Virus record (IMG/VR): IMGVR_UViG_3300020578_005505
Strand: one strand, 5' to 3'
Length of the DNA stretch: 64,000 bases
DNA from: a virus
Taxonomy: Duplodnaviria > Heunggongvirae > Uroviricota > Caudoviricetes
Positions 1,173-64,000 of the stretch are shown in pieces. The translations under genes and the position numbers were made by a program. How positions within the stretch are numbered: position 1 is the first letter of the stretch; each line of letters opens with the position of its first letter. Under the pieces are notes generated by a model. That model was given only the letters and a program-made list of their open reading frames with translations. It ran no database searches and had not been told where the DNA came from.

Positions 1173-1976
1173 CTATAGTTTTATCCAAGTTTCAGGGATC
1201 AGATCTCGTGTATCTAGATCTATTCTTGCAGGACCGAACCACTCCTTAGGTGCTATGACTATTTTATTTTGATTTTGATTAAGCCATGCTCCCCACCAGC
1301 TGAAAGTACTATTGGCGATAATATTATGATTACAGTATGACATTAGGTATAGATCGATATAGTCTTCTTCTCTTTCAATATAAGTAATATCTTCTGATTC
1401 TCCAAATACTCCTTTACAGTAGTTTATATCATCACTAAAAATTACATAACTATCAATCTGAGTATTTGAAGTTAGATACTTGATTGCTCTTGTATAGTAC
1501 TCACTACTTGCAATCGGATGATGGTTAGGCAAGTTTACATAATCGCCTCTCCGTATATGAATTGATAAAGCATTACAGCTTAGAATTTTTCTGTATTTAT
1601 CTTCAATATACTTTTTTATCTGATCGGTAGGAGAAAATAGATCTAGGATTAATTGACGGTTATGAGCAAAATATCTTTCAGATTGCATATAACCTCTATA
1701 GATAATATCATCATGTGATTTGAGATCATGATATCCATAATTCAATTCTAGATAAAAAAACTTACTAGCATCAATATCTTCTCGAGGTACCTTAGAAAAA
1801 ATATTATGGTGATAGTTACCAAAAGAAGGATTCTTAATTTGAGGAAATGTAACTTTAAGGTTATTATCATAAGCATGACTATACAAAGCTGCTACCTGAA
1901 ACATTTGGTTACATAATCCGAAATTATACTTACCGTCTCCTGGACCTAAAATATCACAGGTTATGAATCCTGTCAT
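1173..1976 (-). CDS. Glycosyltransferase family 11 (alpha-1,2-fucosyltransferase-like)
   Basis: HIRRGDYV motif, matching the GT11 HxRRGDY signature. 267 aa. Confidence 0.6.
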   Translation of the reverse strand: MTGFITCDILGPGDGKYNFGLCNQMFQVAALYSHAYDNNLKVTFPQIKNPSFGNYHHNIFSKVPREDIDASKFFYLELNYGYHDLKSHDDIIYRGYMQSERYFAHNRQLILDLFSPTDQIKKYIEDKYRKILSCNALSIHIRRGDYVNLPNHHPIASSEYYTRAIKYLTSNTQIDSYVIFSDDINYCKGVFGESEDITYIEREEDYIDLYLMSYCNHNIIANSTFSWWGAWLNQNQNKIVIAPKEWFGPARIDLDTRDLIPETWIKL

Positions 1977-2712
1977 AGACTTTCTGCTTTGTTCTAATAA
2001 TCGCTTCTGTTTCTTTTTGTTTATTCAACCCTAATTTAGCTTCATTCATTTCATTCTCTCTATTCAAAATCAAGAGTATGTCATCTGTTTTAATAGCTCT
2101 TTTATTCCCAGCCATTTCAAGCATAGGAAACATAAGCGCTAGATCACTCGCTTCAGTATAAATCTTACCTGTTCTAGGATCTAACAGATCGTTCCTATCG
2201 ACTTTTTTAAAAAGGCCTGCTTTGTAAGTCCGTAAGTGACTGGATACAAAAGGATATTGCTTGTAAGCATTTGCATCACTTACTTCATTCGGAATAGAAA
2301 GAGATGCGTGTCCGCCTAATTGTCCGCTTGGGTACATTTGATAGTTACCATAAGTCAGCCAACATTGTGTGTTATTGTAGACGCTATTTAGATACTGTAA
2401 AACGAACACTGAAGCTAGCCAATCGTCCCCGTCTATATTAACAATGATATCTTCATCTGCAGGATTAGCATAATCGAAGGCTTTAACAATATTTTCTAAT
2501 GGGGATCCGGCATTAAATTCGTTTTTAAAAATATGAAACCTGGTATCTCCAGCTATCTCTTCTATCAACCTCCCTATAGTATTATCTGGAGATGCATCAT
2601 CAACAAAATACACCTCGAAGTTTTTATAGGATTGAAACTTAAGCATATTAACGTACATCTCAATCCATCTAGAAACCTTATATGCTGCTGTAAGAATAAT
2701 AAATTTATTCAT
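1954..2712 (-). CDS. Glycosyltransferase family 2
   Basis: FVDDASPDNT (DxD/DDxS-type GT-A motif) close to the N-terminus. Confidence 0.65.
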   Translation of the reverse strand: MNKFIILTAAYKVSRWIEMYVNMLKFQSYKNFEVYFVDDASPDNTIGRLIEEIAGDTRFHIFKNEFNAGSPLENIVKAFDYANPADEDIIVNIDGDDWLASVFVLQYLNSVYNNTQCWLTYGNYQMYPSGQLGGHASLSIPNEVSDANAYKQYPFVSSHLRTYKAGLFKKVDRNDLLDPRTGKIYTEASDLALMFPMLEMAGNKRAIKTDDILLILNRENEMNEAKLGLNKQKETEAIIRTKQKVYDRIHNL

Positions 2713-2714
2713 AG

Positions 2715-3293
2715 TTAATCAAAAAGAACTATACCTGTTCCGCTAAAATGTCCTAAATTAGTAATGTCTTTTTTTTCATAAGTTATTTCATTCCAATAAC
2801 TTACCATAGCATCATTTAAATAAATGTCATCGAGAAGTAAAATTCCTTTCCAGTTTATTTTTTTAAGATATTCATAAACGGCGTTTTCAAAAGGACCGTC
2901 ATGAGCTGTATCTAAAATTATTATACTACTTTTCTCAAACAGTTGAATCTTTTCAGTATCTAAAATATTCTCTACATAAAAATAGCAGTTATCAGTAGGC
3001 TGATTTACCATTCTTCTATCAACTAGGTCAAACGAATGAACAGTATTAGTTTTATTTGATGCTAGTGCTAAACATGAACATCCTATGTGAGTCCCTAGGT
3101 CTATAATAATTTCATTACTAACTAAACTGGCAATATTTACTAGCAGTCTATAATGCTCTCTTCCTGCTTTGTCAGTAAAAAAATTCCTATAATTATGATC
3201 TGTAATATTCAAGGATAGTTCCTCTACTTCAACATTATTAATTGTTTCAGGTGTAGTACTAATAATTGTTTCGTAAATTTTTTTTAGAATCAT
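2715..3293 (-). CDS. Putative SAM-dependent methyltransferase (FkbM-like)
   Basis: IIDLGTHIGCSCLALA resembles methyltransferase motif I. Confidence 0.35.
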   Translation of the reverse strand: MILKKIYETIISTTPETINNVEVEELSLNITDHNYRNFFTDKAGREHYRLLVNIASLVSNEIIIDLGTHIGCSCLALASNKTNTVHSFDLVDRRMVNQPTDNCYFYVENILDTEKIQLFEKSSIIILDTAHDGPFENAVYEYLKKINWKGILLLDDIYLNDAMVSYWNEITYEKKDITNLGHFSGTGIVLFD

Positions 3294-3304
3294 TTTGTAT
3301 AGTT

Positions 3305-3940
3305 TTATACAGTTCTATAATAACCTCCTATCTGGAATTTAGTTTTAGTATTTATAGAACCATACTCACTTGGCTTGTATCTAGAATAAGTCATAACCCT
3401 AAAGTCTACACTAACTCGGCACTTACCTGTTATATTAATTTTATTTCCATGTCTTAGATTGGCACCATCCCACTGTACCAATTCTCCATACTTACACTCT
3501 ATAGGTAGATAATCCCCTTTATCTTCTTCAGATTCTACCCAAATAGTATTAGTATCGAAGGCCTCAGTAAAAGGTAAGAAGAAATTATCTTCATCTACTT
3601 CTCCTGCCCATTTAACGTCTCTATAATTTTTATCCTTATGAAACTCTCCAACGGCAATATTATTAGGGTAAGCAACTCTGAAGGTAGGAATTGCTTGATA
3701 TACTATCTGTTCGCCATATAAAGGTTTAACTACTTTAAGAATGAAACTATTGTAGAGCTTTTCGAATGAATCTGTTCGCGCCCACTCGTAGAAAGCTTTA
3801 TGGTACTTTGTACTTTGATCATTCTCTCTCTTGAAAACATCTACTTCATCATTTAATAAAGCAAGATCATTAACCTCAAATAGTTTTTCAATAGCTTCTT
3901 TAAATGGAAAGGTAGTAGTATCGTAAGTTACTGTAGTCAT
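3305..3940 (-). CDS. Putative Fe(II)/2-oxoglutarate dioxygenase (PhyH-like)
   Basis: HKD (HxD) followed by a distal His/Arg (NLRHG...R), the arrangement of the 2OG oxygenase facial triad. Weak call. Confidence 0.3.
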   Translation of the reverse strand: MTTVTYDTTTFPFKEAIEKLFEVNDLALLNDEVDVFKRENDQSTKYHKAFYEWARTDSFEKLYNSFILKVVKPLYGEQIVYQAIPTFRVAYPNNIAVGEFHKDKNYRDVKWAGEVDEDNFFLPFTEAFDTNTIWVESEEDKGDYLPIECKYGELVQWDGANLRHGNKINITGKCRVSVDFRVMTYSRYKPSEYGSINTKTKFQIGGYYRTV

Positions 3941-3941
3941 A

Positions 3942-4874
3942 TCACTTGTTTGAAAGTATATTAAAAAATTCTATCATTCTTTGTTTCCATGTATGCTTTT
4001 CAAGACATATTTGATTTGCTCTTAATGCTAGCTCCGCTCTTAGATCAGGTTTATCTAAGTAAAAGTCAATAGCGTCTATCCAATCCTCTTTCGAAATATA
4101 AGGAATAGCCCCGTCAAAAACATTTAACACCTCGGGATGATCGCTTATTTGGAAATTATTACTTAATGCTATTTCATAAACCCTAGTATTAAAATCTAAC
4201 TTAAATCCTTCTTGGTCTAACTGCTCTCTTTTTTGTTGGTCGTAATGGAAGTTCAAATTTACTTTGGTAGCGTTATATACTTCATTTAAAAAAGAGTATT
4301 TAACGGTAGGATAGTTTATACCTTTATAATAGAAGCCTCCAAAGAAACCCTTATAACCTCTATCGATCACAGGAAATAAATAAACATCTTGATATCTATA
4401 TCCATGTCCTTGGCCTCCGAATCCTCCTACAAAGCTTACATCGTAGGTTTTACTAAATTCGTTTACAGTTTTATAGTAAATACTTTGAGTAGCTGCTAGA
4501 GGTAAGAATGCTACCGGCAGTCCATTTTCTTCAAACTTCTTTTTAACATATTCATGCTTCATAAATGGCTCTATCCAAAGATCTACTACCCCTTTTAATC
4601 TTAAAAAGTAATCTTTAAAGCCAGAAAAATTAACAATAATTTTAGTGCTTGGATGTTTGTCTTTAAACGTTAAAACAGGTATTAACATCTCAGGAGTTAT
4701 TCCCATAATAACTAAGAGATCTGGACTTTCTGGAAGCTCGTATGCGTTTAAGTCATATTTAAATTCAAGAATATAAGGTTCGTGACCTAGGTTTTCTAGT
4801 CCTTCATACCATCCAACTCCTCCAGGAACGAAATGATCTAATGATTCATATATTGCTACTTTTAAACTTTTCAT
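3942..4874 (-). CDS. CgeB-like/GT1-fold glycosyltransferase
   Basis: C-terminal NTRVYEIALSNNFQISD resembles the GT-B C-terminal domain of CgeB/DUF3880 proteins. Confidence 0.35.
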   Translation of the reverse strand: MKSLKVAIYESLDHFVPGGVGWYEGLENLGHEPYILEFKYDLNAYELPESPDLLVIMGITPEMLIPVLTFKDKHPSTKIIVNFSGFKDYFLRLKGVVDLWIEPFMKHEYVKKKFEENGLPVAFLPLAATQSIYYKTVNEFSKTYDVSFVGGFGGQGHGYRYQDVYLFPVIDRGYKGFFGGFYYKGINYPTVKYSFLNEVYNATKVNLNFHYDQQKREQLDQEGFKLDFNTRVYEIALSNNFQISDHPEVLNVFDGAIPYISKEDWIDAIDFYLDKPDLRAELALRANQICLEKHTWKQRMIEFFNILSNK

Positions 4875-5488
4875 TAAAATGTATTATAAAAAGCATTTTG
4901 ACTTTCTTGTCTCTCTATTCCTTTCTTATGTATTAAACAAAACTCTTCAGTTGCAGGAAGCATAACATAATTACTATGTCCGATAATTACTTCATGTACT
5001 TTACTTACCCAGCTAATCTTCGGGGAATTTTGGAGTATTCTTGTTTGGTAATCAGGGAAGTTAACATAGCCGGTATCGTTTACATGCCATCTCCATTTCT
5101 GAATATGCTCTTGAGTTAGACCTTCTACTAAATTTATTCTAGGTACCAAGAAAAGATCTACAGTAGGATTTGCAGCTAATATTTCAGGTAAATTCAATAA
5201 TAATTCAGGGTATAGATATTCATCTGCATCGATCTGGAATATCCATTCTCCAGTACATTTGCTCTTCAGATTATTCTTGAATGCAGCAAAGTTGCCCTTC
5301 AACGGAAACTGCCATAGTGAGAATGCCGGATACCTGCTTATAACTTCCAATACCTCTTTAGTTACAGAAGTATCAACTTGAATAACTACCTCGTCTACGT
5401 CTCTGATACCTCTATCTAGCTGATCAAGTAGACGAGCTAATTCCTCGTGCTCGTTATGAGCGGTAACAGCGTAACTTATTCTGAACAT
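4874..5488 (-). CDS. Glycosyltransferase family 2-like
   Basis: N-terminal ISYAVTAHNEHEELARLL and a DxD-like QIDADEY motif. Start overlaps the stop of the upstream ORF. Confidence 0.5.
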   Translation of the reverse strand: MFRISYAVTAHNEHEELARLLDQLDRGIRDVDEVVIQVDTSVTKEVLEVISRYPAFSLWQFPLKGNFAAFKNNLKSKCTGEWIFQIDADEYLYPELLLNLPEILAANPTVDLFLVPRINLVEGLTQEHIQKWRWHVNDTGYVNFPDYQTRILQNSPKISWVSKVHEVIIGHSNYVMLPATEEFCLIHKKGIERQESQNAFYNTF

Positions 5489-5931
5489 TATTCTTGATTA
5501 AATACTCCAATATAATCACACGCTTCTATAAAATCACTTCCAAAGTGCTTGATTGATTTAGCATCAGATTTATAGGATAAATTTTTATACTTCGGTTGCT
5601 TTTTTTCTTCCTCGGTTAAAGGAATTACTTTAATAGCCGACCATTGCGTTTCTTCTTTAGTCTTTCCATTCAGAAAAACAGTGCCTCTATCGGATATGTT
5701 GATACTAATTGGATACCATACTCTCTGTTGATTATCTACAAATTTAGTATCCTTATAAAGTTCAGGTAGAGTTTCTTCGTATTCTTCAAAATTAAACTCT
5801 CCTTGCTTCATTAAATCGTTAGTCTGAAAGCCACATCCCCAGCAGAAATAATTAAATTTAGTTTCGTTTATGGGTGTTACGTAGCAGCCGTCGCATCCAC
5901 ATTTAGGGCATATTATCATCTGATCAGTCAT
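5488..5931 (-). CDS. Hypothetical Zn-ribbon protein
   Basis: CPKCGCDGC...CWGCG cysteine pairs. Confidence 0.3.
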   Translation of the reverse strand: MTDQMIICPKCGCDGCYVTPINETKFNYFCWGCGFQTNDLMKQGEFNFEEYEETLPELYKDTKFVDNQQRVWYPISINISDRGTVFLNGKTKEETQWSAIKVIPLTEEEKKQPKYKNLSYKSDAKSIKHFGSDFIEACDYIGVFNQE

Positions 5932-6166
5932 TCAGTAGCGTTTTATCTTTTAGAAGTAGATTAGTGTTAGTAGAATGCCAAATCTTTATAGGTTCGGGCA
6001 TATCTGATGTTGCATTAGGCTTAGGACTATAATCAGGAAAAGACAACGTGTCTTGTACTTTATTAAGTTCTTCTAGAATAGTATCCCATTGCTCGGGAGT
6101 AATATTGTACGAATTAGCTGCTTTAGAAAATCCTTTTAACCAGGTAGTAAATTCTTTAGATGTCAT
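5924..6166 (-). CDS. Hypothetical protein
   Basis: ORF in an operon-like array, overlapping its neighbours by a few nucleotides. Confidence 0.3.
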   Translation of the reverse strand: MTSKEFTTWLKGFSKAANSYNITPEQWDTILEELNKVQDTLSFPDYSPKPNATSDMPEPIKIWHSTNTNLLLKDKTLLND

Positions 6167-7476
6167 AAAGTTAATTTTGTAAGTTTAGGAAGTTCAATTT
6201 TTTTTAGCTTAGGTAATACTATCTCTTTTTGTTCAGGTACGTAACGGTTTAAATATTCATTTAAAACTAAGACCATGTTGTCCCAGTTAAATTCATTTTT
6301 AATTTTATAAGCTTGCCTCTTAGCAGGTCCTTCAAATTTACTATAATTTTTATAAACGTCAACTAAAGCTTGGGCAGCTGCAGAATGATTGACTGAGAAC
6401 CAAGATGAGCCTTCTATAATTAGCCCTTTTGCAAATGCTGAAGGATGTACGGGAGTTATTTCTCCTGGGAGAAGGATGCTAAATTCAGGGTTCAAAAAAT
6501 CAGTATGACCGGACCATCCTGAAGCGATTAAAGGTTTTTTAGATAGACTGAATTCAGCTAATGGTCTACCGAAGCCTTCTCCTTTAGTTAGAGATACGAA
6601 AGCCTTCACTTTTGGATGATTATATAAATTGTTAATCTCCTTATCATCTAAATCACCGTGTACGAGATAAATATTTGGAAGTTTTTTTGCTTCTACGCTT
6701 TCTCTAATTATATCTATTTTTCTTAATACCTCATCTCTATCCATTATGCTAGCACCAGCTTGAGAAGTTTTTAAAATCAAGGCTGGTTGTTCTTTTTTAT
6801 CTTTAAACGATTCTAAAAATATCTTAATTAAAAGACTCGTATTCTTTCTATCTTCGCCGAAGTCTCCTGGGAGCCAATGCCCCACAAATAAGTAACTAAA
6901 TTGCTCTGAAATACTATTTAGATTATTGACAAGAGGAGTACACTCTAATTGTTCTTTAGGGATATAAAAATACTTATTTAAATCTACACCTTCAAATAAT
7001 ATCTCTACAGGGGCTTTTATTTTAATTATTTCAACTACAGCGTTACTATTTTTATCCCTCTGCTCATAAGTAGTACTTTCAAATACTTTTTTAGCATGAT
7101 TAGAAGATACTAAAACTAAATTCATTTTATTACATCCTATAATGAATTCGGGGTCGCATACAGTAGTCTCTATTCCGGCAGTTACTCCGATATTTACTTT
7201 ACCTACAGGCTGAAATTCATTTGGAACCGTAATCTGTATCCATACATCTGGTTGCTTAGGTAACTGATTGTTTATTAAAAGAGGTTTCATCCATCCCCAC
7301 TCCTCTAGATTATCATCTATAAAACCCCAAGGAGTACTACCCCATCTCTGAGACATAATTTTTATATCCCATTGATCTTTTTTTAGTTCGTAAACTGCTT
7401 TTATAAAATCCCTCGCTCTTGCTCCATAACCGCTATAAGTATCCGGCGGAGCTGAAATAACACAGAACTGCTTCAT
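6163..7476 (-). CDS. Glycosyltransferase family 4 (GT-B fold)
   Basis: TKGEGFGRPLAEF matches the EX7E-type GT4 motif. Confidence 0.6.
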   Translation of the reverse strand: MKQFCVISAPPDTYSGYGARARDFIKAVYELKKDQWDIKIMSQRWGSTPWGFIDDNLEEWGWMKPLLINNQLPKQPDVWIQITVPNEFQPVGKVNIGVTAGIETTVCDPEFIIGCNKMNLVLVSSNHAKKVFESTTYEQRDKNSNAVVEIIKIKAPVEILFEGVDLNKYFYIPKEQLECTPLVNNLNSISEQFSYLFVGHWLPGDFGEDRKNTSLLIKIFLESFKDKKEQPALILKTSQAGASIMDRDEVLRKIDIIRESVEAKKLPNIYLVHGDLDDKEINNLYNHPKVKAFVSLTKGEGFGRPLAEFSLSKKPLIASGWSGHTDFLNPEFSILLPGEITPVHPSAFAKGLIIEGSSWFSVNHSAAAQALVDVYKNYSKFEGPAKRQAYKIKNEFNWDNMVLVLNEYLNRYVPEQKEIVLPKLKKIELPKLTKLTL

Positions 7477-7477
7477 T

Positions 7478-8923
7478 TTAATAAGTTAGCTTATGTATAA
7501 TTTTTTTCTTAGGTAATTTTGATATCTTAATAAATTCGTGACTTGGTCTCGGCTTCCATTTAGCAAAAGTCTCTTCAAGTGTATCTATAACATTTTTACA
7601 CATAGCTCTAGCTGACATCATAGATTCGTCCGAAGTTACCCATTTTCGAGCTTCCGCTCCGATAAACTTACGGAAATTCTCGCCTGATTTATAACAAGCA
7701 GATATTTGAATAGCGATATCTCGGAAGTCGGCTTTGTCGTCAAAGATATACGGAGTAGGTACGGACCCTACAAGACTAATATTGCTAGGAAATATGGGGA
7801 ATGCCCAATTGCCGTGAGTCTTATAAGTTCCGAAATGATTGCTACAAAAGTTTTCGTTAAACTCTATCCAATTGCCTTGCTTATCTTCAAATCTAATTTG
7901 ATCTTGCATTCCTCCGGTAACTGTTGCAATTATAGGCCTACCACACATCATACCTTCAGTAAGCGACAGTCCCCATCCTTCATTAGAAGAGACGAGGGCT
8001 ACTACGTCACAGCAGTTATATAATATATTCATATCATAAGGAGAGTTTCTATCAGTAGAAAATACTACCCTATGTCTCTCAGGATCACATAACAGCTCGA
8101 TAACTGCCGGAAGATCGGTTCCGTTATCATCTACAGGCTGTGTGTGTAGGAGTAATGCACATTTTTTAGCTTCTTCTAGAGGCAACTGATTGCAAAATTC
8201 AACATAACCTACTATCAAATCAGGTACACACTTCCTTCTAATATTTCGCGCGTTATAAAGAATAACGAAATTAGGTTGATTTTCTCCAAAAAACTTCTTT
8301 TTCTTCTCTTTAACCTTACTATAGTCTTCTGTCATTTCAGGAGTAATGGGATAGAATACTTCCTCGTTGATACCGTGAGGAACATATTTTATTACTTTGT
8401 CCTTAGCTTTTTCTCCAAGTACTAGCTTATTAATATTAAAAGTTTGCTTTGAGATAGCCATCAATGCATCACAAGATTCATAATAAGCTTTATTATAGAG
8501 AGGTGCAGGTAAATCGTCCCATATATTAAGATATACCATTGGTATTTTCTTTCTTACTTCATTCTCTATCTGAAAAAGCCAGATCCAATATCTAGGATCA
8601 GTAAAGAAAACGATAGCATCAGGCTTTTCGATTTCAATTAATTGACGTAAGATCTCTTGAGATCCATAACCTGAGTGAGGATATATAAAAACCGAAGCAT
8701 CTTCGATCTTCGCTAAAGTGTTTGTATCTGCGCATAAATCAAGTTTTTTACCTGCTTCTGGGTGTGTAATAGCTGCGCCTAAGTTAACCCAGTTTAAGCG
8801 ATGAGAGGTTCCGATAACTATCTCTTTAGCCATTGTAGATATTCCAGAGGTAAATCGAATATCGTCTGCAAGCAAAAGTATTTTTTTTCTCTGCTCTTTT
8901 GGAATATAACCTTCTTTTGACAT
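7478..8923 (-). CDS. Glycosyltransferase family 4 (GT-B fold)
   Basis: NEGWGLSLTEGMMCGRPIIAT, the classic GT4 sugar-donor-binding motif. Confidence 0.65.
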   Translation of the reverse strand: MSKEGYIPKEQRKKILLLADDIRFTSGISTMAKEIVIGTSHRLNWVNLGAAITHPEAGKKLDLCADTNTLAKIEDASVFIYPHSGYGSQEILRQLIEIEKPDAIVFFTDPRYWIWLFQIENEVRKKIPMVYLNIWDDLPAPLYNKAYYESCDALMAISKQTFNINKLVLGEKAKDKVIKYVPHGINEEVFYPITPEMTEDYSKVKEKKKKFFGENQPNFVILYNARNIRRKCVPDLIVGYVEFCNQLPLEEAKKCALLLHTQPVDDNGTDLPAVIELLCDPERHRVVFSTDRNSPYDMNILYNCCDVVALVSSNEGWGLSLTEGMMCGRPIIATVTGGMQDQIRFEDKQGNWIEFNENFCSNHFGTYKTHGNWAFPIFPSNISLVGSVPTPYIFDDKADFRDIAIQISACYKSGENFRKFIGAEARKWVTSDESMMSARAMCKNVIDTLEETFAKWKPRPSHEFIKISKLPKKKIIHKLTY

Positions 8924-28233: not shown

Positions 28234-28491
28234 CTAATTTTCTACTGAGTCTTCAAAATCTCCACGCATAAATTCGTAAGCTTCAGGCGTTCCAGGAAAG
28301 GCTATAAAATCGGGACGCTCCATAACTCTCTTTAAAATCTTTATTGTAAGATCTCTGTCCTTAGTGTCTATGACTAAGGGTTCGAAAACAAATTCAGATT
28401 CTACATCATTTTTATAAGTCAGATAGTATAGGCTACCGGCACCGACGTGCTTAATTGCTTCGTAAAAACTTTCAGCTGTTGTCTTTTTCAT
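28234..28491 (-). CDS. Hypothetical protein
   Basis: 85 aa ORF. Confidence 0.3.
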   Translation of the reverse strand: MKKTTAESFYEAIKHVGAGSLYYLTYKNDVESEFVFEPLVIDTKDRDLTIKILKRVMERPDFIAFPGTPEAYEFMRGDFEDSVEN

Positions 28492-29419
28492 ATAACGAAT
28501 TTATATATTCTTTTAAACGATCTACAGGCTGCCATCCTAGACGCTCAATAGCGTCGTTATTTAGTCTAATAGTTTCACGGTAATTTCCCTTTTGCTCAGA
28601 TATTAATATTTTTTCGCATTTAAACTTTTTAATAAACATATCTGCTACCTCATTGATCGAATAATTTTTACCTGTACCAAGCTCCCAAGCATCCTCATGC
28701 TTTTCATTCGATTCGGCTACTCTAATCAATCCGTCTACAATATCATCTATATAGGTAAAGTCACGGCGTTGTTCTCCGTCACCTATAATTGTTATAGGAT
28801 TATTTTTTCTAATTTGTGCTCTCCAAACTCCAATGACTGCAGCCATATGCGAATCTACTAATTCGCCTCTTCCATATACGTTATAGAATCTGACTATCTC
28901 TGCATTTAAACCATATACTCCTTTAAGCATCTTAATCCATTCTTCTCCCATATGTTTTGTTAATGCATAAGGAGAAATCAACGGATCATGGTGTCTTGAA
29001 GACGATCCTGCATATATTAACTTAGCATTAGCTTTTTTTGCATATCGAGCTACTTCTACTGTTCCGACTGTATTGATTGAGATTGTTAGCTGCTCAGCCT
29101 TAAATGATGGTTGTATTCTACTTAATGCTGCTAAATGAAATATATACTTATACTCTTTTAAAGGTATATTTTCCATTGCTCTCACATCACCTCCTAAAAA
29201 GCTTGAACCTTTAGCTATTTTTGCTTCTCTACCAATATAAAAGTTATCGATAATATCTACTTCGTAACCCCTGCGCAATAAGTCTTTTGTTAAAGCATAG
29301 CCAATAAATCCACATCCGCCTGTTACAAGTACTTTTCTATTTACCATACCCCTACCGCTCTTTTTAGTAATCCACTTATACATAAAGTTAGCATCTAGAG
29401 TTGGTTGTGTAGCTATCAT
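28472..29419 (-). CDS. NAD-dependent nucleotide-sugar epimerase/dehydratase (SDR family)
   Basis: VLVTGGCGFIGYAL Rossmann motif and a YxxxK-type catalytic region. 315 aa. Confidence 0.7.
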   Translation of the reverse strand: MIATQPTLDANFMYKWITKKSGRGMVNRKVLVTGGCGFIGYALTKDLLRRGYEVDIIDNFYIGREAKIAKGSSFLGGDVRAMENIPLKEYKYIFHLAALSRIQPSFKAEQLTISINTVGTVEVARYAKKANAKLIYAGSSSRHHDPLISPYALTKHMGEEWIKMLKGVYGLNAEIVRFYNVYGRGELVDSHMAAVIGVWRAQIRKNNPITIIGDGEQRRDFTYIDDIVDGLIRVAESNEKHEDAWELGTGKNYSINEVADMFIKKFKCEKILISEQKGNYRETIRLNNDAIERLGWQPVDRLKEYINSLYEKDNS

Positions 29420-29420
29420 T

Positions 29421-30700: not shown

Positions 30701-30883
30701 ACTAGCATCAAATACTTCTTCCCAAAACGGCTTTTCTTCTGTTCCATAATTCTCATATACCTTTCCATCTAAACCTAGTACTATTGTTCCCGGTCCAAAA
30801 TTATTACCTTGTATAAAATTATTTTCATTAAATATACATTTTCTTTCTACTGTTTCTTCATCAAATATTACTGTTATTTTCAT
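30677..30883 (-). CDS. Hypothetical protein
   Basis: 68 aa ORF. Confidence 0.3.
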   Translation of the reverse strand: MKITVIFDEETVERKCIFNENNFIQGNNFGPGTIVLGLDGKVYENYGTEEKPFWEEVFDASYKITLNV

Positions 30884-30884
30884 A

Positions 30885-31721
30885 TTATACGTTTAATGTT
30901 TTATTCCAAGCGGCAATATGTAAACGTGTTAATCCTCTGAATCTATACTTCTTAGCCATCTCTAAACAGAATTGAGTACGCTCTTCAAAATCCTTAACAT
31001 CATCTAAACCAGGCATACACACTACATTTTTAAGTGGTATATCTAACGGTTTAACAAAATCTTCAAATATTTCTATAACATCATTTTCAGTACTAATAAC
31101 AAATTTAAACTGGTAATTACTATGTTCCATAATACGTCTAAGACCAGCTTCAACAAAACGTTGCTTTTTAGTCATACCTGAATTAGCTAGTTTAGGTGAG
31201 CAGTTAATTTGATCTAAAATATTAAAGAGATCTTCTTCAATAACTACAGTGCCATTTGTTTCAACTTCATTAAAGACTTTGTAGTTTTCAAAGTTTTCTA
31301 TAGTACTCCAATACTTAAAGAAGTTAGTTATAGCTTCCTGATGACCTTTAATTGTAGGCTCACCACCAGTCCAAATGATATGTATATTACCGTTTTTAAT
31401 ATCGTCATATACGCCTTGTCCTTTCCATCTATTAATTAAATACTGGAACTCTTTTTCTTCTCCTCTCCATAACCACTGACTTGTAGAATCACAAGTCCAA
31501 GTTGCTTTACCTTCTTTAACTAAATCACCTTCAAATATTTCTCCATCTTCTAATGATGCTTCTTTTGCTAAATTATTAGCAAATGCTCTACTCATGCCGC
31601 AGGTTAGATTACATATACCTAAACGGACAAAGTATGAAGGTACACCTGATGATATACCTTCACCTTGGATAGAGTAAAAGTCACTAGAAATTAATAGTTT
31701 ATGCGGATCGATTTTGCTCAT
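30885..31721 (-). CDS. queE: 7-carboxy-7-deazaguanine synthase (QueE, radical SAM)
   Basis: YSIQGEGISSGVPSYFVRLGICNLTC and WTGGEPT, the QueE N-terminal signature and cluster-binding region. Confidence 0.65.
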   Translation of the reverse strand: MSKIDPHKLLISSDFYSIQGEGISSGVPSYFVRLGICNLTCGMSRAFANNLAKEASLEDGEIFEGDLVKEGKATWTCDSTSQWLWRGEEKEFQYLINRWKGQGVYDDIKNGNIHIIWTGGEPTIKGHQEAITNFFKYWSTIENFENYKVFNEVETNGTVVIEEDLFNILDQINCSPKLANSGMTKKQRFVEAGLRRIMEHSNYQFKFVISTENDVIEIFEDFVKPLDIPLKNVVCMPGLDDVKDFEERTQFCLEMAKKYRFRGLTRLHIAAWNKTLNV

Positions 31722-56499: not shown

Positions 56500-56889
56500 T
56501 TACTTGATCTTAAAAATATCTCGTACAAAACTTACGCCGTACTTATAGAGATCAAAGATTATAACTAAAATTATTCCAAGGATAGTTGAGTAGAGTATAA
56601 AGAAAAATATCCAGGTTTGTTGCCATCCATCAGTCTTACCTTCAATAAAGGCTACCCAGATTAAAGTAGAAGCACCTGATATCGTCGTTAGCACAAATAT
56701 AGTGCGTATAACGATAAAGATTAATGCAATCTCTAACCAGAATCTAGCTACTAGATACCCTAAAGCGATTACTGATAAACTAACGATAAATAATGTTAAC
56801 CAATTCATAACTTTTATTTTATACCTAAATATACGGATTCTCCGCTTTGGAAACAACTTTTTATAGTAAAATAACCTATTGAAAATCAA
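56500..56889 (-). CDS. Membrane protein
   Basis: 129 aa with 3-4 predicted transmembrane helices. Confidence 0.35.
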   Translation of the reverse strand: MIFNRLFYYKKLFPKRRIRIFRYKIKVMNWLTLFIVSLSVIALGYLVARFWLEIALIFIVIRTIFVLTTISGASTLIWVAFIEGKTDGWQQTWIFFFILYSTILGIILVIIFDLYKYGVSFVRDIFKIK

Positions 56890-58349: not shown

Positions 58350-60119
58350 TTATGCACCGAACGTTACTCCAGTTGGTAGAATGTTAAAGTCGAGTTGAAT
58401 AAATTCTGCAGTTCTAGTAGGTTGTAAGAAAATAGCACCTACAAGTAGATTGCGATCAATTACATCAGGTGTATTGTTGGTTTCGTCCATTACTACACGG
58501 AAAGCATAAAGACCTTGACGTTGCTGTACGTAATCTAGATATGGATTAACTTGAGAAAGAAACTTGTTGCGTGTGACAGCAGTGTTTTGTTCAAATACTA
58601 ATGTTTGTGCGATCTGACCAATAAATCCTTTTAAGGCTATTAGTAGACGACGAACATTTACTCTATCAAGTGCAGAAGCGCGAGCTTGTAGAGTCTTCTG
58701 CCCGTAGACTACTGTACCTTGTCCTGGAAATACTGCTATAGGGTTAACTCTGCCGCTGTATAATGTATTGCGTTGACCTACAGTTAAACGTCTTTCAGGC
58801 TGAATTACAGTAGGTAGGCCTCCGCGATTCAATCCTGCAGGAGCAAACCATTCAGCAGATACCTTATCATTATACTCGTATACTCCGGGGATGATTACTG
58901 AAGCAGGGACAAAGTTTAATTTTCCGGTTTCGTTAGAACGAACCTGTACCCATGGCCAATAAGTAGCACCATAACTGTTATCATAAGACTGCGCTGCTAT
59001 AGTTACAGAGCTAATAGATTGGTTATATCCGACCATATCTACTACTGCGATAGCGTCGCCGCGATTTTGTACTGTTGAAAGTAAACTACTAATTATTGTG
59101 CTAGCGTTTTGATTTGATATCCCTGGTGCGTAGATTGAATCGTAAACGTACTGATCTTGGTTGGATAGTAAGTTTATTGCAGTTGTATAGTTGTCGGGGA
59201 ATACGCCTTGAATATTAGTACCTGAGCTAGCGCCTGTAGAGCTAACGGTTGGAATAGCTTCAAATAGATTGAGAGCTGCTAAACCGAAGCATCCAAATAA
59301 AGGACCGCTTGCTGCACCAAATGAACCGTTCTCAGATCCGCTTCCGTTTATAGGAATGGATGCAGTATATTGTTGATAAGCAACACCTTGAGGATTCAAG
59401 TAGTTTGGCGTAGGTAAATTAACATTCTTTACTCTTACATACAATGAAGCATTTGGATAGCTTCCAGTAATCTCTAAATATTTTTGACCGTCACTATCAG
59501 TTGCTACGTTTTGAGTTTGATCTCCAATTACGTAAGCTATATAGTTATTTTGGTTAGGATCTAATGAAAGATTAGTCCAGGTTTCAAGTACTGTTTGATT
59601 TGAAGTATAATCATCACCTCTTCTAATTAATAAAGTAAACAAGCCAGAAGCTGAATCCGCTTGTGTGATCTGCCATCTAATATTACTTGCTGATCCAGAA
59701 GGTAAAATACCGTTAGTAGCCGTAGATGCACCTTGACTGTTGTTCATGATAGTTCCTACTGAAAGAGTCTCGAGAACAAAAGGAGATGTATTGGCTATAC
59801 TACATGATATAAGAGATGAAGTTGCTGCAGTATAAGACCCGCTAGCAACTCTAGTCACCAATAAAGACGTACCTCCTTGCTGGAAATAATTAAAAGCAGC
59901 TTGAGAGGTCAAATATTCGTAAGTATTGCTATGGGAAATAAAAGTAGTTCCGAATTTAGCTTTATACTGAGAATATGAAGTAACGAGGGTAGGGATATTA
60001 GGCTTTCCTATTACAGTAGGACCGATTAGAGCTGCGCCTACGGTTACTGGGCCTGCTGTTACTTGAGAAAGGTCGTTTTCTCTCAGGAATACGCCTGGTG
60101 AAATTAATGCTTCTGCCAT
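58350..60119 (-). CDS. Contractile tail sheath protein
   Basis: N-terminal MAEALISPGVFLRENDLSQV matches the conserved sheath start (LSPGVY.EE.D.S). 589 aa. Confidence 0.75.
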   Translation of the reverse strand: MAEALISPGVFLRENDLSQVTAGPVTVGAALIGPTVIGKPNIPTLVTSYSQYKAKFGTTFISHSNTYEYLTSQAAFNYFQQGGTSLLVTRVASGSYTAATSSLISCSIANTSPFVLETLSVGTIMNNSQGASTATNGILPSGSASNIRWQITQADSASGLFTLLIRRGDDYTSNQTVLETWTNLSLDPNQNNYIAYVIGDQTQNVATDSDGQKYLEITGSYPNASLYVRVKNVNLPTPNYLNPQGVAYQQYTASIPINGSGSENGSFGAASGPLFGCFGLAALNLFEAIPTVSSTGASSGTNIQGVFPDNYTTAINLLSNQDQYVYDSIYAPGISNQNASTIISSLLSTVQNRGDAIAVVDMVGYNQSISSVTIAAQSYDNSYGATYWPWVQVRSNETGKLNFVPASVIIPGVYEYNDKVSAEWFAPAGLNRGGLPTVIQPERRLTVGQRNTLYSGRVNPIAVFPGQGTVVYGQKTLQARASALDRVNVRRLLIALKGFIGQIAQTLVFEQNTAVTRNKFLSQVNPYLDYVQQRQGLYAFRVVMDETNNTPDVIDRNLLVGAIFLQPTRTAEFIQLDFNILPTGVTFGA

Positions 60120-60200: not shown

Positions 60201-60467
60201 TTATGCACGAGCTATTTCGCCAGTTTCTGGGTTTATAGTGCCATCTCCATACTTTTGACCAAACTCGTTTAGCTGTGTTCGTTGTTTTACAGCGTTAGCT
60301 TTTACAGCTTCTTTTAGGTTCTCTAATTCGAGATCGAGTAATGTTCTTTGAAAATGTAACTCGCCAAGTATTGCAGCTAGGCGATTGGCTTCTGTTCGGT
60401 GAATTTGAAACTCTTGTAACTCTTCAGGAGTTAATTTTTGATTTTGCATATTATTTTTTATTTGCAA
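60201..60467 (-). CDS. Hypothetical protein (start more likely the ATG at 60449)
   Basis: The track uses a TTG start at 60467, which overlaps the upstream small ORF. The ATG at 60449 directly follows that ORF's stop. Confidence 0.3.
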   Translation of the reverse strand: MQIKNNMQNQKLTPEELQEFQIHRTEANRLAAILGELHFQRTLLDLELENLKEAVKANAVKQRTQLNEFGQKYGDGTINPETGEIARA

Positions 60468-60713: not shown

Positions 60714-61307
60714 TTATTGAAAATGTTCTCCGCCTACCCAGAATACTAGAGATCTACGTAAGCCTCTAGTAACTCTAGTAACTCTATGCATCATGTAAGA
60801 AGGGAATACAAATACAGCGCCTTTGTCTCTTGAAGCAGTAACGTAGTTGTCTCCGCCTAACCAATACTGTAAATCGCCTCCTCCATATTCATCAGGTCCA
60901 GCAAGCTGTACAACTAGAGAAACTTTTCTTAAAGATGCAGAACCAGGTCCGATGTCTTGATGCCATACGTAATGTCCGCTTTCAGATGCTAAATACTCAG
61001 TATACTGAATGTTATCAACTATATGGTGTAAATTAAAATTCCATAGAACGTCATTTGCTTCAATAACGCATGCCATTAAACGTTCATAAAGCCATTCCCA
61101 TTGAGTGTTTTTTGGAATCCATTTCAAACGTGAAGATCGTATTTTCTTAGCTTCGTTGCCATCCCCAATTACAGTAGCTTCTTCAAAATTAAGAGAATTT
61201 AAATCTTGATCGATTTTACCTAACTCTTCTATACTAAACTTAGTCAAGTAGTAGTAGTAATTTTGCGGATCGTTTTCCTTCTTGGGAAAGGTGTAGGTTG
61301 TTAACAT
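60714..61307 (-). CDS. Fe(II)/2-oxoglutarate dioxygenase-like (prolyl-hydroxylase/PKHD-type)
   Basis: HxD (VWHQDIG) with downstream His (YMMHRVTRVTRGLRRSLVFW). Confidence 0.45.
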   Translation of the reverse strand: MLTTYTFPKKENDPQNYYYYLTKFSIEELGKIDQDLNSLNFEEATVIGDGNEAKKIRSSRLKWIPKNTQWEWLYERLMACVIEANDVLWNFNLHHIVDNIQYTEYLASESGHYVWHQDIGPGSASLRKVSLVVQLAGPDEYGGGDLQYWLGGDNYVTASRDKGAVFVFPSYMMHRVTRVTRGLRRSLVFWVGGEHFQ

Positions 61308-61317
61308 TGCTTTTATT

Positions 61318-62097
61318 TTAAATATTGATTTGTTTGCTTCTAACGAATTCTAGATCAAAAGTAGTTGCTGAAATAGGAAAAGCCTCGTTATTGAAAGGAT
61401 TCTTATATGGATCAGTCATTCTCCAACCTTTACCCCATTTTTTATTCAAATATTCGAAATTAATTTTATTTATCTCTGAGAGACGGGTTTGAAGTTCTAA
61501 ACTTGATTTTACTGTTTGACTTCCGTGTTTATAGTATTCATGTGCGAATCCATCACCATGGTAATAAGATCTAGTCAAGCTATATATACGTTTGAGAGGT
61601 TTTGCCCAGACTCTCATAGTATAATCAGCATCTTCACAGTAAGCGGGAGATAGGTTCTCATCGAATAGTCCATATTCCTGTATTACCCAGTCTTTAATTA
61701 AAAATAAGTCCCATGAACCATCGTCAAAGTCTCCGCCATATCCGTGAACTATCCCTACATCCTGTTGTTGAGAGGCTTGTACCATCTCCTTCAAAAAGCC
61801 TTCAGTAAATGCTACATCGTCGTTTGTAATAATCCAGAAAGGGGCTAGTATATACGACTTTAATATAAGATTCCATACACAAGGGATCCCTAAATTAGAC
61901 GGTAGATGACAGATAGTTAGTTTATCTACAAAATAATTTTTATTCATATGCAGGTCTTCTAACTGCTGTGTTATCTCCCCTTTACCGTTGTTATTAAAAA
62001 TCACGAAATTCTCTACTGGATAATCGATACTATAATATAGTCGCTGAACCCACCGAGGATTTTTCATAACTGGAGCTCCTATAACTGGTATTTTCAT
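61318..62097 (-). CDS. Putative GT-A fold glycosyltransferase
   Basis: DxD-like EDADY and NDDVAF motifs. Weak. Confidence 0.3.
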   Translation of the reverse strand: MKIPVIGAPVMKNPRWVQRLYYSIDYPVENFVIFNNNGKGEITQQLEDLHMNKNYFVDKLTICHLPSNLGIPCVWNLILKSYILAPFWIITNDDVAFTEGFLKEMVQASQQQDVGIVHGYGGDFDDGSWDLFLIKDWVIQEYGLFDENLSPAYCEDADYTMRVWAKPLKRIYSLTRSYYHGDGFAHEYYKHGSQTVKSSLELQTRLSEINKINFEYLNKKWGKGWRMTDPYKNPFNNEAFPISATTFDLEFVRSKQINI

Positions 62098-62101
62098 ATC
62101 A

Positions 62102-63352
62102 TTAATTTAAATCTATGATTTTGATCCTTGGTAATAAAATAATAAATTTTGCTTGAATTTCCAACGCCAAGGACTTAATTATATACTCTGCAAAATTATG
62201 TGCAAGTATTAGTATGTAATCTGGGGGAAATACTTTAAGGGCAGATCTATCCACAACTTTTATTCCGGTACCGGGTATATACTTACCTTGCTTTAAATTA
62301 GTATCATCTACTACATAGTCTATATGTTCATCGGTAAGTTGCATAGCATTAAGATAGATACATCCTTTAGCGGCAGCCCCGAAACCTGCTATACTCTTTC
62401 CTTCTCTTTTTAAATTTAAAATAAAGTCTCTTGACTGTTCAATATGTAGCTTAACTTCTCTTCCCCATTCTAGATACTCTTCTATTGAAGACTTCTCATT
62501 CTCTAAAATAGGTTTAACACTATAATCACATGTTTGAAAAGCCTCACCTACCCCCCCTTTATGTGTAATAAGTAGTCTCATAGTACCGCCATGAATAGGA
62601 TAGTTAACGGCTTTTATGACTCTGAGATTATATTTATCAAATAATTTTGTTAACGGACCTACATTATAATAATAAACGTGTTCGTGATATACTTGATCGA
62701 ATTGGTTAGTTTCGATATTAGTTTTTAAATAAGGGAATTCAAGGCACCAAATTCCGAACTTCTCTAAGCTAGCTGAAATACCCTCAACGAAACTCTCTAT
62801 AGGTTCAGTATGCTGAAAGCAATTAGTAGTAACTATTAATTTGAACTGCTTATTAAGATCGCAAGCTGTTTTCGAATTCCAAAACGTATTGATAGAGTTT
62901 ATCCCGTTTTTGACTGCTATTTCAGTTAGATTTTTAGATGCGTCTACATTCAAAACATCTAGTCCGGGTTTTAATTTAAGAAACGTCTTTAGTAACGTAC
63001 CATCGTTTCCTCCTATATCTAAAATCTTATCTCCCTGTTTAAGTTGGAGATATACATTTAGGTAGTTAAACATCTCTTCACAATGTTCTATATAAGGATA
63101 AGATATACCTGATTTATAGGTATAGTTTGTATAAAGAATTTCTGGATTAATAATATGAGTTAAAGTGCAAAGTTCGCTTTCAGGAAAATATTGAACTGCT
63201 AACGGATAGCGGGGACAGTTCAAAGATTCTAGCCGGCTATAACATAAATTATTTACTAACGGTAGATCTCCTAAGTTAAAAAATTCAACAGGATTTTTAT
63301 CACCAGTTATAGGACAGACTCGTAAACCTTTTTTAATATTCATTAATCCCAA
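62102..63352 (-). CDS. NDP-hexose C-methyltransferase-like (Zn-ribbon + SAM-MTase + C-MeT C-terminal domain)
   Basis: N-terminal CPITGDK...C Zn-binding region, SAM motif I LDIGGNDGTL, and a size of 416 aa typical of the TylCIII-like family. Confidence 0.55.
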   Translation of the reverse strand: MGLMNIKKGLRVCPITGDKNPVEFFNLGDLPLVNNLCYSRLESLNCPRYPLAVQYFPESELCTLTHIINPEILYTNYTYKSGISYPYIEHCEEMFNYLNVYLQLKQGDKILDIGGNDGTLLKTFLKLKPGLDVLNVDASKNLTEIAVKNGINSINTFWNSKTACDLNKQFKLIVTTNCFQHTEPIESFVEGISASLEKFGIWCLEFPYLKTNIETNQFDQVYHEHVYYYNVGPLTKLFDKYNLRVIKAVNYPIHGGTMRLLITHKGGVGEAFQTCDYSVKPILENEKSSIEEYLEWGREVKLHIEQSRDFILNLKREGKSIAGFGAAAKGCIYLNAMQLTDEHIDYVVDDTNLKQGKYIPGTGIKVVDRSALKVFPPDYILILAHNFAEYIIKSLALEIQAKFIILLPRIKIIDLN

Positions 63353-64000
63353 ACTTGATCAAAAAAGAATATATGAAATAATCTACTATTTTCCATATTG
63401 TATCCAAAATAGTTAACACCGGAGTGAATAAGTCCGCCATCAAATATTACTAGTCTATTAAAGATGTTTCCCACTGTATCTACCATTTCATAAGGTGTAC
63501 CATCTAAGAAAGTATGCCCGGGAAACACTTTAAATCCATCGCCTAGCGGACCCCAGTCCATTTGAGTATTGTGGTGTATTTTTGTTTCTCTATGACGGTA
63601 GAAACAGGTTCCAGACTGTGGTGGTGCATCAGGCGTTAGGTAAATTACAGCTGCCCATTTTTGAGAATCACAATGGAATACTGAAGGCGTTCCTCCTGAA
63701 CAGTATTGAAAGCGTCCGTTAATACCTTCATCGTACCATCCTAGACCTGTTTCGGTATGATCGGCTATTTTTACACCGATAATACTCTCAAACCTTTCCT
63801 TCAATCCGTCAAAGAAAAATTGCTTACGAGTACGCATTCCTACAGAACCTTCTCCGGGAAAGTAAGTTTGTTTTAGTGCAAAATCTCTTACTCCAAAAGG
63901 ATCGTCGTAGAAGTGATCGACTACGAAAAAGCGCTTATCCTTGGCTCGGGATACGGTAAAATTATCGGCTTCAATTATTCCCCATTCTGAATCGGGATTA
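63343..64000 (-). CDS. Partial CDS (runs off the window end): 2OG-Fe(II) oxygenase-like protein
   Basis: The frame stays open upstream of the track ATG at 63837 through position 64000 (...NPDSEWGIIEADNFTVSRAKDKRFFVVDHFYDDPFGVRDF...). HxD in SVFHCDSQ and a distal His LIHSG. Confidence 0.4.
   Translation of the reverse strand, partial: NPDSEWGIIEADNFTVSRAKDKRFFVVDHFYDDPFGVRDFALKQTYFPGEGSVGMRTRKQFFFDGLKERFESIIGVKIADHTETGLGWYDEGINGRFQYCSGGTPSVFHCDSQKWAAVIYLTPDAPPQSGTCFYRHRETKIHHNTQMDWGPLGDGFKVFPGHTFLDGTPYEMVDTVGNIFNRLVIFDGGLIHSGVNYFGYNMENSRLFHIFFFDQVWD

Follow-up and report, generated by a model that had tools for sequence, protein, structure and literature searches.

At the right end of a 64-kb stretch of viral DNA from the IMG/VR record IMGVR_UViG_3300020578_005505 (Caudoviricetes; the whole stretch is referred to here as the window), four genes encode a DUF6445 protein, a C-methyltransferase of the type that acts on nucleoside diphosphate (NDP) sugars, a family 2 glycosyltransferase (GT2) and an oxygenase of the type dependent on Fe(II) and 2-oxoglutarate (2OG). 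Our analysis of this locus and its relatives shows that a conserved module linked to collagen-like tail fibres has DUF6445 and the GT2 at its core, and that the C-methyltransferase has entered this module as a rare cassette; it and the oxygenase, which resembles prolyl 4-hydroxylases (P4H), are lineage-specific additions. We propose, on evidence that we judge to be evenly balanced, that the four genes form the end of an operon that builds and attaches a tailored glycan, and that the likeliest acceptor of this glycan is the phage's own collagen-like tail fibre.

The four open reading frames (ORFs) lie on the minus strand, as do all genes in the window, and occupy positions 60714-64000 (Table 1); two of their junctions are gaps, of 4 and 10 nt, and at the third the stop and start codons overlap (TAATG). 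A preliminary description of this DNA had listed the same four genes as a sugar-tailoring cluster; every ORF was recovered where it had been placed, and the family matches of the four proteins lie far beyond chance expectation. What that description missed is the main point, namely the DUF6445-GT2 core and the collagen-fibre-linked module to which it belongs. The tail sheath gene downstream places the cluster within the structural region, and a small ORF between the two, 77-99% identical and syntenic in the related contigs L003, L004, L005 and L008, marks the downstream boundary; it has no significant family match in Pfam and PHROG profile searches. The same four contigs keep the four-gene synteny, and in Flavobacterium phage immuto the region upstream of the sheath gene is devoid of the cluster. 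Among cultured phages no near-identical DNA match to the window was found, exact-protein look-up of the window DUF6445 and C-methyltransferase returned no record, exact 70-mer searches of IMG/VR and metagenome contigs gave no match to the source contig, and a scan for sigma-70 promoters and terminators gave no signal above shuffled sequence.

The sequence beyond the end of the window is represented here by L004, an IMG/VR contig with the same gene order and 97.3% DNA identity over the shared 8 kb. Upstream in L004 lies an ORF of at least 972 aa that contains 232 GXY triplets (GPT GPT GPQ GTT GAQ GIQ) and a C-terminal Peptidase_S74 chaperone, and that by these features is a predicted collagen-like tail fibre. 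It is followed by ORFs of 214, 180 and 327 aa, a hexapeptide acyltransferase, a 266-aa protein with a weak GT2 match, a 623-aa MT_24-TPR-FkbM-like methyltransferase and a radical S-adenosylmethionine (rSAM)/SPASM protein, and then by DUF6445, the C-methyltransferase (10010-11251 of that contig), the GT2 and the P4H-like oxygenase. A module made up of the 325/327-aa protein, TPR-FkbM, rSAM/SPASM, DUF6445 and GT2 recurs in unrelated contexts: in the contigs L011 and L012-L014, in cyanophage DSL-LC02, where it is flanked by genes for a collagen-like protein and a tail fibre (L021 1869-5579), and in cyanophage S-SCSM2R, where it follows a tail-pin gene (L022 2750-5582). The rSAM/SPASM enzyme is only sometimes part of it. 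The 325-aa protein is 51-66% identical between the cyanophages and the window lineage, and a PDB search with its profile gave no match. Fusion partners of the TPR-FkbM part are rSAM/SPASM (in L012 and DSL-LC02), DUF6445 (in S-SCSM2R) and MT_24 (in L004 and L011). Database labels on module genes include 'MGP protein', 'cytochrome c-type biogenesis protein CcmH/NrfG', 'beta-mannosyltransferase' and, on the DUF6445 protein, 'FkbM family methyltransferase'; as they stand in L021 and L022, these annotations look unreliable.

Co-occurrence separates the core of the module from its accessories. Relatives of the GT2 are encoded in 451 IMG/VR contigs, and 46 GT2 loci whose upstream sequence extends for 6 kb or more were used for counting. 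The 327-aa protein and the TPR-FkbM (623-aa) protein are each present in 40 of the 46 and DUF6445 in 31, the C-methyltransferase occurs in two, and the P4H-like oxygenase in one. In 44/46 loci DUF6445 and the GT2 occur without the C-methyltransferase, and so do not serve it as dedicated partners. TPR and SPASM domains are characteristic of protein-modifying enzymes, and their presence in the module favours a protein substrate; a crude Kyte-Doolittle scan predicted no transmembrane helix in any protein of the cluster.

The link to collagen-like genes was assessed with a criterion of GXY runs of at least eight triplets. Such runs occur at 24/80 GT2-anchored loci, and at 19 of the 40 that are 15 kb or longer; DNA-polymerase-anchored control loci from the same phage group gave 0/80 overall and 0/47 at that length. 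For the longer loci the difference from the polymerase controls corresponds to a Fisher p of 1.9e-8, and that from module-free sheath-anchored loci (2/21) to an odds ratio of 8.6 with p=0.004, both p-values being optimistic because the loci are phylogenetically related and the tests overstate their independence. Individual cases are explicit: the ORF directly after the GT2 in L012 encodes a 1160-aa collagen protein (PF01391, 7e-110), L043 encodes one of 1477 aa (PF01391, 5e-55), a collagen-like gene is found at the module throughout L011-L014, and one is annotated next to it in DSL-LC02.

The C-methyltransferase is, from its sequence, a bona fide member of the TylC3/MtmC/TcaB9 family of S-adenosylmethionine (SAM)-dependent NDP-sugar 3-C-methyltransferases with a predicted intact active site. 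An automatic ORF listing begins the gene at a TTG at 63352, giving 416 aa; the true start is likely an ATG at 63343 that shares bases with the DUF6445 stop codon and yields 413 aa, the same length as in L004. The protein covers all of the C-terminal family Methyltransf_14 (profile positions 1-160 of 160; E=3.5e-32, 111.9 bits against a gathering score of 23.5) and has a central class I SAM domain (Methyltransf_23, 2.5e-12; Methyltransf_12, 4.4e-07). Full-length matches in the PDB are MtmC (4rv9, 1e-56), TcaB9 (3e-31) and KijD1 (2e-29), with 30% identity to MtmC and 27% to TcaB9. In an alignment with 118 homologues, the numbering of the window protein coincides with that of TcaB9, and Y77, N177, H181, Y222, E224 and H225 are invariant and shared with both MtmC and TcaB9; this set includes the residues that we take to form the TcaB9 active site (Tyr76/77, His181, Tyr222, Glu224 and His225). 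G115 and D117 of the SAM motif DIGGNDG, and D137, are likewise invariant across the homologues.

The preliminary description had assigned the TylCIII type together with a Zn-ribbon plus a SAM domain. The type and the SAM domain are borne out by these matches, and the Zn-ribbon is not: the MtmC zinc ligands C13/C16/C56/C59 correspond to C13/T16/F56/S59 in the window protein and in 118/118 close homologues, so that three of the four cysteines are lost, and the N-terminal domain scores 25.3 bits with Methyltransf_13, under its gathering score of 31.3. The N-terminal domain is thus recognisably homologous, but by its residues canonical zinc binding appears impossible and the apparent ribbon is best described as a relic. 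Identity as an O-methyltransferase or a tRNA methyltransferase, which would have told against a C-methyltransferase, was rejected, since the sole match of that kind was phrog_4752 at 0.0069, within the SAM domain only.

Rarity of such an enzyme in phages, which had also been claimed, holds for isolates, with homologues in 7/50,697 cultured-phage records, and does not hold for metagenomes, where more than 120 clusters show at least 54% identity on contigs of up to ~226 kb. IMG/VR viral contigs yielded eight relatives, and both long contigs inspected look phage-like; the literature searched for phage C-methyltransferases gave nothing relevant. Between the window and L004 the C-methyltransferase is 93% identical in amino acid sequence, and DUF6445, GT2, P4H-like oxygenase and sheath are 99%, 99.6%, 98.5% and 98.8% identical. 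The greater divergence of the C-methyltransferase than of its neighbours suggests local recombination or faster evolution of that gene alone.

Context in other phages gives good support to a role in sugar tailoring, as the preliminary description had proposed. Synechococcus phage DSL-LC02 has GMD, a methyltransferase homologue (26% identical), GDP-fucose synthase and at least eight glycosyltransferases together. In L043 an RmlD-like reductase is followed by a C-methyltransferase (45% identical), a GT2 (58%) and DUF6445 (61%), the second and third overlapping by 4 nt, an order that by sequence matches the enzymes expected if an NDP-4-keto-6-deoxyhexose is methylated, then reduced, and the resulting sugar transferred. 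Homologues 62-64% identical lie inside a glycosyltransferase cluster in L007 and L019, and in L006, L007 and L019 the surroundings comprise glycosyltransferases, short-chain dehydrogenases/reductases (SDRs) and fucosyltransferase-like genes. The L006 homologue (63% identical) follows, within 3264-12003, genes for a DegT aminotransferase, two FabH-like ketosynthases, a FabG-like reductase, a PhyH dioxygenase and a PglD-like acetyltransferase, a set that may point to a phage pathway for an N-acylated amino sugar.

Assignment of the 259-aa protein as a GT-A/GT2 glycosyltransferase is based on homologues and on a structural model. The window protein itself misses PF00535 and matches Pfam GT21 weakly (0.027), a PDB sequence search gave no match, and the PHROG profile hit is phrog_29879 'galactosyl transferase' (1.2e-19). 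Many of its 340 homologues are already scored as PF00535, including those 53-76% identical to it, and the family has invariant motifs at D94 (in N92-D93-D94) and E155-D156-x-D158. Its AlphaFold model (pLDDT 82.6) matches AvpGT, TarS, TarP, WrtF and ppGalNAcT in Foldseek at 2e-8 to 1e-6.

Both genes flanking the C-methyltransferase and GT2 are predicted to encode 2OG/Fe(II) oxygenases with complete HxD...H...R sites, in agreement with the two oxygenase-type proteins first noted there. The DUF6445 ORF had been listed as 63343-63837 (164 aa); it is 222 aa in L004, and since no stop is met up to base 64000, with 218 codons visible, it is cut by the end of the window. The protein matches DUF6445 (PF20043) at 2.6e-10, with 41 bits against a gathering score of 24, and has 535 homologues, with H109, D111, H192 and R206 invariant in 23 aligned sequences. 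A PDB search with its profile gave no match; its AlphaFold model (pLDDT 89.5) matches in Foldseek only oxygenases of the 2OG, double-stranded beta-helix type (3dkq, PHD2, P4H, HygX and OGFOD1; E ~1e-4, TM-score 0.45-0.56). DUF6445 is not mentioned in the literature that we searched, and its homologues are labelled 'minor coat protein' in S-SSM7 and in phrog_1644. In L015-L017 (about 7001-7609) and L043 (10770-12794) the gene adjoins a 347-aa thymidylate synthase gene, and in L015-L017 also genes for a 4HBT thioesterase and a protein with a Por_Secre_tail domain of the type IX secretion system, which points to Bacteroidota as the hosts of this phage group.

The 197-aa oxygenase matches 2OG-FeII_Oxy_3 (PF13640; E=5.3e-11, 43.8 bits against a gathering score of 27) and phrog_61 '2OG-Fe(II) oxygenase' (6.8e-26), and has H116-x-D118...H174 followed by an Arg-rich stretch, RVTRVTRGLRRS. 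Its match to the NCBIfam Fe2+-dependent dioxygenase model (1.1e-13) is under the cut-off, and PDB sequence matches to PiuC, Sbal_3634 and a prolyl 4-hydroxylase are weak; as no NCBIfam equivalog cut-off is reached, we claim no specific orthology, for example to PiuC/YbiX. Orthologues of more than 90% identity are confined to L003, L004/L023, L005/L025 and L008/L024. A tie between this enzyme and Pro-rich repeats of the lineage was considered and left as speculation, since only a single lineage is involved and the 2OG matches in L182/L183 are 32%-identical paralogues.

Table 1. Coordinates and assignments of the features discussed, in order of position in the window
Feature	Position	Strand	Remarks
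First glycosyltransferase cluster: GT11, two GT2, three GT1/GT4-like, several unknowns	1173..8923	-	Pfam
dCTP-deaminase-like	23024-23560	-	deazaguanine set
FolE	23570-24280	-	deazaguanine set
AAA_28	24284-24793	-	deazaguanine set
PurN-like formyltransferase	24822-25388	-	deazaguanine set
Two-domain QueF-like	25385-26302	-	deazaguanine set
259-aa unknown	26292-27071	-	deazaguanine set
QueC	27068-27958	-	deazaguanine set
Putative NAD-dependent NDP-sugar epimerase/reductase-type SDR	28472..29419	-	PF01370 5.5e-41; sole sugar-nucleotide SDR in window
QueE	30885-31721	-	deazaguanine set
Tail sheath gene	58350..60119	-	52% full-length identity to Flavobacterium phage immuto tail sheath
88-aa ORF between cluster and sheath gene	60201..60467	-	downstream boundary marker; synteny
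Predicted 2OG-Fe(II) oxygenase, prolyl-4-hydroxylase/PKHD (PiuC/YbiX) branch	60714..61307	-	197 aa; lineage-specific accessory
Predicted GT2-family (GT-A fold) glycosyltransferase	61318..62097	-	259 aa; core gene of conserved module
Predicted NDP-sugar 3-C-methyltransferase, TylC3/MtmC/TcaB9 type	62102..63343	-	413 aa; degenerate zinc site
DUF6445 protein, predicted 2OG/Fe(II) oxygenase fold	63343..64000	-	218 of ~222 codons visible, 5' end cut

Because the C-methyltransferase, the GT2 and the oxygenases end a conserved module beside collagen-like fibre genes, the phage probably decorates its own fibres with a branched sugar. The four genes would constitute the 3' end of a late, structural-region operon. 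An NDP-4-keto-6-deoxyhexose, made by the host or encoded elsewhere, would be methylated at C-3 by the C-methyltransferase, and the 4-keto group would then be reduced, in L043 perhaps by the RmlD-like reductase encoded directly upstream, and here by the SDR in the window or by a host enzyme. The adjacent GT2 could attach the branched sugar to Thr-rich GXY repeats, or add it to a glycan being built on them, as in the BclA protein of Bacillus; the FkbM/MT_24 methyltransferases, the acyltransferase and the glycosyltransferases of the first cluster may extend and decorate that glycan, and the two oxygenases may hydroxylate fibre residues or the sugar. A fuller version of this proposal, that the widespread module modifies collagen-like fibres post-translationally and has here recruited a 3-C-methyltransferase that puts a C-branched deoxysugar on them, we put forward only tentatively, as a minority view even in our own assessment.

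The composition of the repeats bears on the chemistry. Over 2,548 GXY triplets the X position is T in 32% and I in 24%, and the Y position is Q in 63% and T in 24%, rising to 53% T in the Y position of the L004 repeats. O-glycosylation of threonine like that of BclA would fit, by analogy. Classical collagen modification through hydroxyproline or hydroxylysine was considered and ruled out by repeat composition: the repeats contain almost no Lys (0.5% at Y) and almost no Y-position Pro (0.3%), and such chemistry does not fit.

This near absence of the residues that collagen hydroxylases modify is one of several points that weigh against the proposal that the fibre is glycosylated, along with the statistical dependence among loci described above. 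The window contains no collagen-like repeats in any frame, and the collagen-like gene, which lies outside it, is placed there by reference to L004. The fibre as acceptor is proposed from gene neighbourhood and analogy. Within 10 kb, roughly half of the long GT2 loci lack a collagen run, and the C-methyltransferase homologue of L020 stands alone among small ORFs. No dedicated 4-ketoreductase, 4,6-dehydratase or nucleotidyltransferase adjoins the C-methyltransferase in the window or in L004. Glycosyltransferase genes in tail-fibre hotspots have, moreover, been read by others as modifiers of the host O-antigen (PMC7029224).

Two other parts of the window could contribute to the glycan. The SDR in Table 1 has its best PDB matches to GalE (1.6e-29) and UDP-glucuronate decarboxylase; the TDE motif of 4,6-dehydratases is missing from its catalytic region (AGSSS...YALTK), and all NCBIfam equivalogs fall far under their cut-offs. 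It is, by sequence, a candidate 4-ketoreductase or epimerase and not a clear 4,6-dehydratase. The gene lies between QueC and QueE, inside the deazaguanine cluster and outside both glycosyltransferase clusters. At the other end of the window, positions 1173-10217 (minus strand) encode a PD-(D/E)XK nuclease, two GT1/GT4-like proteins (481 and 437 aa), a 147-aa protein, a GT2, a Glyco_trans_1_2 protein, proteins of 211 and 192 aa with no assigned family, a further GT2 and a GT11 fucosyltransferase-like protein. The core of this first cluster (PDDEXK nuclease, GT1, GT1, 147-aa protein and GT2) is 31-63% identical to the clusters of L007 and L019. Since a C-methyltransferase homologue sits inside the homologous cluster there, the two clusters of the window probably serve the same glycan, with the C-methyltransferase gene moving as a cassette.

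The main rival to fibre glycosylation is that the C-methyltransferase, glycosyltransferases and oxygenases remodel the host surface, altering the lipopolysaccharide (LPS) O-antigen or capsule, for instance to block superinfection. The large clusters of glycosyltransferase and NDP-sugar genes in S-SSM7, P-SSM2 and S-SCSM2R have been interpreted as host-surface genes (PMC3037559, PMC12801897, PMC7029224), the customary view of such 'LPS gene clusters' in T4-like cyanophages and pelagimyophages, and in S-SSM7 DUF6445 lies between the GT11 and GT25 genes of the cluster; TylC3-type enzymes are known to make LPS sugars, such as virenose in Coxiella (PMC3539893), and the homologues in L007 and L019 are found in a glycosyltransferase cluster far from fibre genes. 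We nevertheless consider host-surface remodelling rather unlikely. The analysis turned up no flippase, polymerase, ligase or polyprenyl-phosphate initiating transferase, the cluster proteins of the window have no transmembrane segment, the TPR and rSAM/SPASM domains of the module would be unusual for an LPS pathway, and, compared with two controls, the module shows enrichment immediately next to collagen-like fibre genes.

In the preliminary description the C-methyltransferase had implied synthesis of a branched-chain C-methyl deoxysugar of natural-product type, and 4,6-dehydratase and nucleotidyltransferase genes were to be sought upstream, past the window. On such a view the locus would belong to a self-contained pathway, with those genes lying just outside the window. 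It is true that the best structural homologues are the antibiotic-pathway enzymes MtmC, TcaB9 and KijD1, and that a dehydratase or reductase adjoins the C-methyltransferase homologues of DSL-LC02 and L043. However, neither a 4,6-dehydratase nor a nucleotidyltransferase was found in the 64-kb window or in the 10 kb upstream in L004, and 44/46 loci have the module without any C-methyltransferase; a pathway complete in itself therefore appears improbable.

We give equally little credence to the idea that the four genes have no common function and are independent morons in a hypervariable region, the oxygenases being generic phage 2OG enzymes for DNA repair or control of 2OG levels, roles that have been proposed in cyanophages. 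Oxygenases of this kind are numerous and sporadic in T4-like cyanophages (PMC3037559), the position of the module varies between close relatives, it is absent upstream of the sheath gene in L182 and L183 in spite of a 90% identical sheath, and DUF6445 is found away from glycosyltransferases in L015-L017. Shared function is favoured by the tight spacing and start/stop overlap of the genes, by the recurrence of the C-methyltransferase/GT2 adjacency in a further lineage, despite only 45% identity between the C-methyltransferases, by the fusion of DUF6445 to the TPR-FkbM protein in S-SCSM2R, and by the co-occurrence of the GT2 with the 327-aa and TPR-FkbM genes in 87% of loci.

DNA hypermodification, in which the glycosyltransferase and sugar-tailoring enzymes would glycosylate modified bases, is very improbable: the 7-deazaguanine genes at 23024-31721, the ThyA-family gene next to DUF6445 in L015-L017 and L043, and the nucleoside-glycosylating enzyme AvpGT as top Foldseek match of the GT2 speak for it, but the ThyA match is a normal full-length thymidylate synthase (1.8e-92) in a different gene order, at 12% identity the AvpGT match reflects general GT-A resemblance, the module goes with fibre genes and not with deazaguanine genes, and the number of glycosyltransferases far exceeds the need of any DNA-glycosylation system known to us. 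Like the reading as unrelated morons, it is less likely than an effect on host LPS or O-antigen.

Other features of the window may be recorded here. The genes at 23024-31721 (minus strand) form a 7-deazaguanine DNA-modification set (Table 1), and immuto-type Flavobacterium phages carry formylated dPreQ1, which would fit the presence of a PurN-like formyltransferase gene adjoining the QueF-like gene. Positions 16259-18926 (minus strand) encode a GroEL-type chaperonin (555 aa; Cpn60_TCP1 4.6e-62) and an Hsp20 small heat-shock protein. A 129-aa ORF at 56500-56889 (minus strand), between the tail tube and baseplate-hub-like genes, has strongly hydrophobic segments (maximum Kyte-Doolittle value 2.9) and is 98% conserved in L004.

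To our knowledge, phage virion glycosylation has been documented for only a few groups, and among viruses only the giant ones are known to assemble elaborate rare-sugar glycans with enzymes of their own. If the fuller version of our proposal is right, a C-branched sugar would for the first time be known from a viral glycan, and phages would have an equivalent of the BclA/anthrose system, with a fibre glycan that could shape host recognition or shield the fibres. Decoration of collagen-like fibres by the module would also assign a function to a gene set of hundreds of environmental myoviruses and of cultured cyanophages, imply that part of the phage 'LPS clusters' is directed at the virion and not at the host, and suggest that fibres are chemically diversified (by C-methyl, O-methyl, acyl and hydroxyl groups) through the swapping of tailoring cassettes. 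Should the enzymes act on the host surface, the locus would be a modest extension of known auxiliary glycan genes. In either case the C-methyltransferase is predicted to be a zinc-free natural variant of the TcaB9/MtmC family.

Compared with the characterised TylC3-type enzymes (TylC3/EryBIII, MtmC, 4rv9; TcaB9, 3ndi; KijD1, 5t64), the window protein has the same full-length, three-domain layout and conserves the SAM motif and the TcaB9 active-site residues. It differs in having only 27-30% identity to them, in the loss of the Cys4 zinc site throughout the phage clade, and in being phage-encoded with no adjoining dehydratase. Use of such an enzyme for a surface glycan and not an antibiotic has a precedent in the Coxiella virenose pathway (PMC3539893). 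Phage DSL-LC02 likewise has the same enzyme family in a phage glycosyltransferase cluster, although its homologue is only 26% identical and the window lineage is without the flanking dehydratase and reductase. The 'LPS/cell-wall' clusters of S-SSM7, P-SSM2 and S-SCSM2R and the hypervariable, glycosyltransferase-rich tail-fibre regions of pelagimyophages resemble the locus in combining glycosyltransferases, NDP-sugar SDRs, methyltransferases and 2OG oxygenases in large myoviruses, and DUF6445 homologues lie inside such clusters; the module, the collagen link and the C-methyltransferase are not described in the papers on these clusters (PMC3037559, PMC12801897, PMC7029224). We regard the locus as a new variant of such phage glycan gene clusters, and its reading as a module for modifying collagen-like fibres as plausible.

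Two systems outside the phages offer parallels for that reading. In Bacillus, the collagen-like part of BclA, an exosporium protein, is densely glycosylated with GalNAc-Rha3-anthrose (PMC10050317). Its O-glycosylated GPT repeats are Thr-rich GXY repeats like those of L004 (GPT GPT GPQ GTT), which similarly adjoin genes predicted to make and transfer unusual methylated deoxysugars; the likeness lies in the repeats and in the gene setting, and the phage module adds TPR-FkbM, rSAM/SPASM and 2OG oxygenases. Among viruses, Mimivirus L230 combines a lysyl hydroxylase with a glucosyltransferase, and the chlorovirus PBCV-1 has a prolyl 4-hydroxylase. What these viruses would have in common with the phage is the arrangement, a virus-encoded 2OG oxygenase and glycosyltransferase near, or acting on, collagen-like or Pro-rich structural proteins. 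DUF6445 shares only its fold with P4H and PHD (TM-score ~0.45-0.55), and hydroxylysine-linked or 4-hydroxyproline chemistry is unlikely for the phage repeats.

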